From the UHGV virus genome UHGV-1358942: a stretch of 27,572 bases of DNA; one strand, written 5' to 3'. Position 1 is the stretch's first letter, and every line of letters starts with the position of its first letter. The notes below the pieces were generated by a model that did no database searches, was not told the DNA's origin, and saw only the letters and a list, made by a program, of their open reading frames with translations. Below are positions 20,828-21,215 of this stretch, piece by piece. The position numbers and the translations under genes are program-made. This stretch comes from a virus.

Positions 20828-21094
20828 CTATGTTTCCTTTTTATTATTGCTATACATGGTCTTAAGCGTTTCAAAAACCATTTTCTTAACCATATCAGAT
20901 TGTTGTTCTGCCATACGCTCTGCATCGTCAATGTAAACAGATGCAGAGCTTTGTTTAGCCAATGATTCTTCAATCGCTGCAATTATCTCTGAGTTCAGCG
21001 ACCTGTTATTCATCTTCGCACGCTGCTTAATTTTCGCGTGGAGTTCATGCGGAAGTCTCAAGTGAAACTGCGCCTCGTCGTATTTGCTGTACAT
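20828..21094 (-). CDS. mnt: Mnt-like ribbon-helix-helix repressor (Arc/MetJ family)
   Basis: 88 aa from ATG 21094. N-terminal beta-strand FHLRLPHELHAKIKQRA and C-terminal AERMAEQQSDMVKKMVFETLK closely parallel P22 Mnt. Confidence 0.75.
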   Translation of the reverse strand: MYSKYDEAQFHLRLPHELHAKIKQRAKMNNRSLNSEIIAAIEESLAKQSSASVYIDDAERMAEQQSDMVKKMVFETLKTMYSNNKKET

Positions 21095-21215
21095 CCTTGA
21101 TGCCTCACCAGTTGGGTGGAATGGCATCGTAACCTACTGGATAAATACTCAATAGTACCATTTCGGTATGCAATCACATCATGGTTGCATCATATCATTC
21201 GTCTGGAGCAATGAA

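Follow-up and report, generated by a model that had tools for sequence, protein, structure and literature searches.

A lone mnt gene beside the tailspike gene of a P22-like prophage, most likely a minimal P22-family ant moron

The stretch of DNA analysed here (the window) is 27,572 nucleotides long and represents most of a P22-like (Lederbergvirus-type) prophage, in which a homologue of the P22 repressor gene mnt stands alone beside the tailspike gene. This feature is most likely a minimal P22-family 'ant moron' (immI) made up of mnt, the mnt promoter and one operator. The term ant moron denotes a variable set of genes that is transcribed on its own, lies between the homologues of gene 16 and gene 9 and has sequence in common with other ant morons (Villafane et al. 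2008, PMC2629481), and the cassette in the window occupies the one variable slot of the late operon, from the last ejection-protein gene to the tailspike gene. The reading that we favour, with a probability of roughly 55%, is that of a self-contained and self-regulating mnt cassette that would also transcribe a lipoprotein gene, with the tailspike being expressed from the late operon.

In the mechanism that we propose, Mnt would be produced from its own promoter in the lysogen and, as a tetramer, would bind a single operator upstream of the -35 element. Bound Mnt would regulate the leftward transcript that encodes Mnt itself, and this transcript would continue into the lipoprotein gene to give a self-regulated, prophage-expressed unit. 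Rightward transcription of the tailspike gene would start at the late promoter and depend on the Q antiterminator, which is encoded at 3180-3803, and restrained leftward transcription may in addition reduce collisions with late transcripts that run into the tailspike gene.

As a genome feature, the cassette is a common, published short form of P22 immI, with near-identical copies in GenBank (Sf101 and IME10) and in many E. coli prophages. The present comparison adds purifying selection on mnt, a conserved promoter, a matched and covarying operator, a single predicted site in each genome scanned and the apparent decay of Pant, and it sharpens the question of remnant or new function that was posed in the phage L genome paper (PMC8022706). 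The features discussed below are listed in Table 1.

Table 1. Features of the mnt-tailspike region, in positions of the window
Feature	Position	Strand	Remarks
Lipoprotein gene	20272..20757	-	MKKSLLIIPLLLVGC..., lipobox LVGC; 70 nt downstream of mnt on the same strand; strong ribosome-binding site, AAGGAG
mnt homologue	20828..21094	-	88 aa, MYSKYDEAQFHLRLP...; stop codon 20828-20830; ribbon-helix-helix domain and C-terminal Mnt tetramerisation helix
mnt 5' leader	21095..21127	-	Shine-Dalgarno GGTGAGG; in-frame ATG 21127 (99-aa ORF) probably unused
Predicted mnt promoter, -10	21126..21131	-	TACGAT; T, A, A and T columns invariant across 13 lineages including the annotated P22 Pmnt
Predicted mnt promoter, -35	21147..21152	-	TTGAGT; ATTG invariant in the alignment; spacer to -10 of 15 bp
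Predicted Mnt operator	21154..21170	.	AGTACCATTTCGGTATG; 17 bp, core TACC-N5-GGTA, centre 21162; register of the P22 Mnt operator
Second palindrome	21168..21190	.	ATGCAA-N11-TTGCAT; lineage-specific; between the operator and the tailspike ribosome-binding site
Tailspike gene	21216..23381	+	N-terminal head-binding domain, then receptor-binding part; Shine-Dalgarno GGAG 21204-21207, eight bases upstream

The mnt gene and its promoter

The window opens with the nin region (NinB, NinX, a Roi-like protein, RusA and the Q antiterminator). Lysis, Rha, terminase, head, tail and ejection genes come next, followed by the tailspike gene, 3' of which lie an O-antigen acyltransferase region and an integrase gene. 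An earlier, sequence-only reading of this DNA had noticed an Mnt homologue beside the tailspike gene, and database comparisons bear this out. The product matches the Pfam families Arc (PF03869, 1.1e-14, residues 18-60 of the 99-aa ORF) and Repressor_Mnt (PF11423, 3.9e-12), is 47% identical to P22 Mnt over 76 aa, and matches both the N-terminal domain (PDB 1mnt, 6e-19, residues 6-78) and the C-terminal domain (PDB 1qey, 1.2e-6) of P22 Mnt. It has the N-terminal ribbon-helix-helix DNA-binding domain that places the Mnt family in the Arc/MetJ superfamily, together with a C-terminal coiled-coil predicted to form the tetramer (Arc is dimeric), and a single two-fold symmetric site of about 17 bp, the putative operator, adjoins its own promoter. 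Homologues of the protein are called 'partition protein ATPase' in the RefSeq records of Sf101 (gp14, L001 2974-3267), P22, ST160, ST64T and epsilon34, as well as in PHROGs phrog_795; this label is a propagated misannotation of a ribbon-helix-helix repressor of 83-97 aa.

The ORF lister gave the gene as 20828..21127 on the minus strand (99 aa), but translation almost certainly begins at the second ATG (21094), which the sequence-only reading had implied and from which the product reads MYSKYD. We favour this start because relatives from Escherichia sp. (L009), Buttiauxella (L010) and Citrobacter (L013) have no in-frame start upstream of the equivalent position, because ATG 21127 falls within the conserved -10 hexamer of the mnt promoter, and because the NCBI pipeline annotates the E. 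coli homologue as a 261-nt gene (86 aa), which is the Sf101-type length read from MYSKYD. In the RefSeq record of Sf101, mnt is extended to the upstream ATG. An inverted repeat in the same region (GATGCC..CACC-loop-GGTG..GGCATC, 21099-21128) covers the mnt Shine-Dalgarno sequence and touches the -10 element, and its inner stem appears by eye to carry compensatory changes by lineage, with CACC/GGTG in the window, CACTT/AAGTG in L, GTCC/GGAC in L010 and CGCA/TGCG in L017. Judged by eye, the repeat may form a 5' stem-loop of the mnt mRNA.

A generic promoter and terminator scan of 20150-21350 returned no more sites than shuffled sequences did, and we therefore used a phylogenetic footprint instead. 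The DNA upstream of mnt was aligned for 13 lineages including P22, the record of which annotates Pmnt, Pant, the Arc operator and the Mnt operator. The columns that are invariant across the 13 lineages coincide with the ATTG of the -35 element and the TA..AT of the -10 element of P22 Pmnt, and these elements are kept at the homologous place in the window. The window, Sf101 and L009 have a spacer of 15 bp between them where all other lineages have 17 bp, two bases having been lost (AAAA to AA), so the promoter is predicted to be weak in the window lineage. That lineage also has additional leftward promoter-like elements upstream (CTGACA-17-AATGAT overlapping TATGAT, 21189-21222 on the minus strand), which would put the operator downstream of the transcription start.

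According to work attributed to Vershon et al. in 1987, P22 Mnt bound at this position reportedly does not repress Pmnt and instead raises its activity by shutting off Pant. Self-regulation in a cassette that lacks Pant could therefore be of either sign. In RNA-seq of a lysogen of Kapi1, a different and more distant P22-like phage, mnt was undetected (PMC12922286).

The operator and the recognition strand of Mnt

The predicted Mnt operator is a near-palindrome directly upstream of the mnt -35 element. It is kept in VSe13, JEP4, L009, L010 and L012 while the flanking sequences diverge, and its conservation extends to relatives in Escherichia, Salmonella, Buttiauxella and Serratia; the Buttiauxella locus (L010) carries the perfect palindrome GTACCATTTTGGTAC. 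Moreover, the operator sequence covaries with the beta-strand recognition residues of Mnt, and five classes can be distinguished: HFNFR with GGTCCAC-G-GTGGACC (P22, epsilon34, Pluralibacter and Pectobacterium), QFNLR with AGACCAC-N-GTGGTC (L, ST160 and Gally), QFNFR with ATATCAC-G-GTGATAT (Phlomobacter), QFNVR with TAGTAC-G-GTACTA (L187), and QFHLR with GTACCR-TTT-YGGTAY (the window and its relatives). Among the 24 distinct sequences of the QFNLR class, the operator arms are almost invariant, any base may stand at the centre (C5 G9 A5 T5) and the flank is variable; near-invariant arms with a free centre are the signature that would be expected of a contacted palindrome. The five pairs of recognition strand and operator may constitute a natural specificity series for beta-sheet DNA recognition.

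The sequence-only reading had noticed that the DNA-reading strand is unlike that of P22 Mnt and had thought a different operator specificity likely. Both points stand: the strand reads QFHLRLP in the window and HFNFRMP in P22, and the predicted operator, GTACCATTTCGGTAT in the window as against GGTCCACGGTGGACC in P22, covaries with it, which suggests that the specificity has indeed changed. Losses follow the same pairing in one case. In the Citrobacter relative L013, mnt has a stop at codon 5 and one operator half-site is mutated (C lost), so that mnt and operator decay together. A G-to-T or G-to-A change in one operator half-site is found in 7 of 81 loci.

A PWM of the QFHLR operator gave a score of about 22 at 21154-21170, and elsewhere scores did not exceed 13.5, the shuffle level, in the window, Sf101, VSe13 and JEP4. 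By this measure, the window Mnt would have one recognisable target, adjoining its own gene, within the window and the three complete related genomes scanned. The sequence-only reading had pointed to an ant/arc pair elsewhere in the genome under this Mnt as a counter-case, and the outcome was negative, with one operator each in Sf101, VSe13, JEP4 and the window. Two other candidate sites were rejected. A second exact TACC-N5-GGTA, TACCAATATGGTA at 19537-19549 in the gene-16 homologue, is attributed to chance (0.12 expected per window, PWM score below 9). The second palindrome of Table 1 was dismissed as an Mnt operator since it is absent from VSe13, JEP4 and L010, all of which have the same recognition strand; at the equivalent place, L009 (Escherichia sp.) has ATTCAAT-N9-ATTGAAT, with both arms changed together.

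Distribution of lone mnt cassettes and selection on mnt

The junction of mnt, spacer and tailspike head domain is contiguous in Sf101 and IME10 at 94-95% identity, the Sf101 spacer being identical to that of the window, and the same architecture is seen in Gally, vB_EcoP-720R6, VSe13, ST160 and L. Among 5426 complete E. coli genomes, at least 100, of which O26:H11 strain 11368 is one, carry the junction together with the lipoprotein gene at 96-97% identity, and the junction is also present in representatives of Escherichia sp., Buttiauxella and Citrobacter. In all 80 of the IMG/VR loci closest to the window Mnt, mnt adjoins a head-binding tailspike gene without arc or ant, and in 80 of 80 IMG/VR relatives of phage L Mnt it is likewise alone beside the tailspike gene; the combined 160 of 160 refers to these two lone-mnt classes.

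The sequence-only reading had taken the 'orphan' layout to be unusual and had recommended a comparison with the immI region of ST64T. This view is not supported. Ant morons that contain only mnt have been published for ST64T itself and ST104 (Villafane et al. 2008, PMC2629481) and for phage L (Zaworski et al. 2020, PMC8022706), and the 160 IMG/VR loci agree with them. A lone mnt without arc and ant is already known and very common.

Among these relatives, ST64T, ST104, L, SE1 and ST160 resemble the window in that mnt stands alone, without arc or ant, and is accompanied by one small gene of unknown function, and their mnt lies 135 bp from the tailspike start; the promoter footprint is shared and the operator is retained. 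They differ in their recognition strand and operator (QFNLR with AGACCAC-N-GTGGTC), in their cargo, which is orf62 or orf64 where the window has the phrog_6067 lipoprotein gene, and in a conserved 'boundary sequence' before the tailspike gene, where the window has the ATGCAA-N11-TTGCAT palindrome. Sf101, IME10 and E. coli prophages such as that of O26:H11 11368 are closer, with mnt, a 121-bp spacer and the tailspike head domain contiguous at about 94-97% nucleotide identity, although they carry other tailspike receptor domains and other O-antigen-modifying genes; in Sf101 and IME10, the lipoprotein gene is also absent and the C-terminal tail of Mnt (86 aa) is of another kind. The morons of Gally and VSe13 share both mnt and the lipoprotein gene with the window, and that of Sf101 shares mnt alone.

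Two other morons have more complex contents. In CUS-3 (L181 3997-5035), two mnt-like genes stand in tandem, one belonging to the P22 HFNFR class and the other encoding a divergent RHH protein, and between its Pant-like promoter and ant there is an unannotated Arc-like small ORF (MKVKTLRMPEKLEK...); CUS-3 has been described as lacking arc (PMC2629481). The ant moron of JEP4 (L100 14133-17065) is a further variant, in which a second CI/C2-like repressor gene followed by Rha and KilA genes converges on a QFHLR-class mnt, and a truncated tailspike start (ATGACAGATATT...) is left in a 323-bp spacer before a different tailspike gene.

The mnt coding sequence is intact in 81 of 81 cases, namely the window and the 80 IMG/VR loci closest to its Mnt. 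These sequences fall into 62 distinct DNA sequences and only 30 distinct proteins. For the first 75 codons, pN/pS averages 0.12, and the DNA-binding codons 1-45 hold 19 synonymous and 4 non-synonymous variants. Thus, mnt is under purifying selection and is clearly not decaying. These figures bear directly on the possibility, raised in the phage L paper (PMC8022706), that the cassette is a non-functional remnant of an immI region that has been decaying since arc and ant were deleted. The apparent decay of Pant, the Citrobacter locus with its codon-5 stop and mutated operator, and the IS elements found between mnt and the tailspike gene in some genomes are what such a remnant might leave behind. 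The selection data, however, largely refute this reading, the operator arms and the promoter hexamers have been maintained in different genera, and the layout persists in at least 100 complete E. coli genomes, so that we regard a remnant as very improbable.

A tentative idea, and one that we think rather doubtful, is that lone Mnt cassettes, rather than being leftovers of immI, are widespread devices with a regulatory or immunity function of their own, selectively maintained and divided into several specificity classes. If so, the cassettes could guard the junction of the late operon and the tailspike gene or neutralise the antirepressor promoters of competing phages.

Neighbouring genes and possible targets of Mnt

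The absence of arc and ant, which the sequence-only reading had noted, was confirmed by tblastn for the moron slot: P22 Arc, Ant, SieA and orf59a gave no match between the gene-16 homologue (18410-20257) and the tailspike gene, and Arc had no match in the window beyond the mnt gene itself. P22 Mnt gave one weak tblastn match elsewhere (E 1e-3), inside the gp20 homologue at 17565-17759, which probably reflects helical composition. The resemblance to P22 immI lies in the slot between gene 16 and gene 9, the leftward orientation of mnt, the two-domain Mnt, the homologous mnt promoter and an operator in the same register beside the -35 element. P22 immI comprises mnt, Omnt, Pmnt/Pant, arc, sar and ant, whereas the window is without arc, sar and ant; it has neither an ant gene with a promoter overlapped by the Mnt operator nor an arc gene and Arc operator between divergent promoters. 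The window Mnt also has an N-terminal arm three residues longer than that of P22, and the distance from operator to tailspike gene is about 54 bp in the window and about 1.4 kb in P22. In phages with arc and ant, the rightward Pant agrees with the consensus at 11 of 12 positions (TTGACA-17/18-TATATT or TATTAT), whereas in every lone-mnt lineage the best rightward match reaches at most 8 of 12 and lies at a non-homologous position (8 of 12 in the window, where the Pant hexamers are lost). On these alignments, the strong rightward ant promoter seems to have decayed in the lone-mnt lineages and is no longer recognisable.

One possible function for a repressor that has lost its ant gene is immunity in trans: the prophage would retain mnt because Mnt shuts down the ant promoter of any P22-like phage of the same operator specificity that enters the cell or already resides there, and the lysogen would thereby be protected from antirepressor-driven induction. 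The Mnt of a P22 prophage does keep ant off, also in superinfecting genomes (PMC11016777, PMC12922286), and the strong purifying selection on the DNA-binding domain even where cargo is missing, as well as the existence of several operator specificity classes, would be predicted by an immunity function. We nevertheless consider this explanation quite unlikely. Among 80 IMG/VR loci with a P22-type Ant, a survey biased towards close relatives of P22 Ant, no QFHLR or QFNLR repressor was found, the repressors being HFNFR, QFNVR or unrelated RHH proteins only, and all 160 lone-mnt loci are themselves without ant. Moreover, a purely trans role leaves the conservation of the operator in cis, beside mnt, unexplained.

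Two antirepressor-family proteins are encoded elsewhere in the window, a Roi homologue with an ANT/KilAC domain (1627-2349) and Rha (5644-6198), both of which are standard lambdoid genes inside operons, and no Mnt operator was found near either of them. The Roi homologue, which gave a weak tblastn match to Ant, was rejected as an Mnt target: its gene belongs to the nin operon, no operator lies close to it, and the protein shares 89% identity with the Roi of JEP4.

The first 113 residues of the tailspike form a full Head_binding domain (PF09008, 4.6e-65), and similarity to the tailspike genes of HK620, Sf6 and CUS-3 sets in about 15 bp before the ATG. The spacer between the mnt and tailspike starts (21095-21215, from ATG 21094 to ATG 21216) measures 121 bp, close to the 120 bp or so of the sequence-only reading, and the gap is exactly this long in 66 of the 80 IMG/VR loci closest to the window Mnt, whatever the tailspike receptor domain or the upstream cargo. 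Folding energies for either strand of the spacer were no better than those of shuffled sequences (best z-score -1.4).

An alternative mechanism is that Mnt controls transcription into the tailspike gene, either by repressing some weak rightward promoter that is left in the 121-bp gap or by acting as a roadblock to, or modulator of, rightward read-through. In the lysogen, such control might silence the tailspike gene together with the antisense of the downstream conversion genes; during lytic growth, it might instead adjust how much tailspike is made. The amount of late transcription that arrives at the tailspike gene of P22 is influenced by the ant moron, and Mnt and Arc may take part in this effect (PMC2629481). 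The short distance from operator to tailspike ATG and the fixed junction are compatible with this mechanism, which would also account for the retention of mnt in Sf101-type phages that have no cargo. On the other hand, no conserved rightward sigma-70 promoter was found, the best matches differing in position from lineage to lineage, and the scan of 20150-21350 gave nothing rightward. A Q-modified polymerase, moreover, is not expected to stop at a small bound repressor, and control of the tailspike gene therefore appears unlikely to us.

The sequence-only reading had offered three targets for Mnt: a tailspike-proximal promoter, its own promoter and the neighbouring lipoprotein gene. The first of these is poorly supported by the rightward matches described above, its own promoter is the best supported in view of the conserved -35 and -10 elements of Pmnt, and the lipoprotein gene fits as a passenger on the mnt transcript.

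The lipoprotein gene and mnt lie between 20257 and 21216 on the strand opposite to the late operon, in agreement with the definition of an ant moron given above. The lipoprotein is a full-length match to phrog_6067 (1.6e-110), a family for which function is given as unknown, and had no match in Pfam. The scan of 20150-21350 found no terminator-like site between the two genes, and the lipoprotein gene is probably co-transcribed with mnt. Among the 80 IMG/VR loci closest to the window Mnt, 43 have a homologue 3' of mnt; none follows mnt in the other 37, which have the 86-aa Sf101 form, and in Sf101 mnt directly adjoins the gene-16 homologue. Thus, expression of this passenger cannot be the general reason for keeping the cassette.

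Insertion sequences are found at the mnt-tailspike junction in several E. coli genomes, including an IS2 between the two genes in E. coli FACU 2024 (L262 1033-2261) and an IS1 within the matched mnt-tailspike region in E. coli OkiPb01684 (hit H34), which indicates that the short spacer tolerates or attracts insertions. Gaps of 728 or 1457 bp in some IMG/VR loci may have the same cause.

The C-terminal receptor part of the tailspike is rare in E. coli, occurring in 2 of 5426 genomes. Downstream of the tailspike gene, an SGNH-domain ORF (23407-24120, 237 aa) and an AT3 acyltransferase ORF (24141-25235, 364 aa) lie 20 nt apart on the minus strand in different frames, and the matching Pfam SGNH model is described as 'fused to AT3 domains'. 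The pair at 23407-25235 may be a split or frameshifted O-antigen acetyltransferase of the OafA/Oac type or a genuine two-gene form, and the tailspike receptor part and the SGNH gene occur together in 2 of the 5426 complete E. coli genomes.
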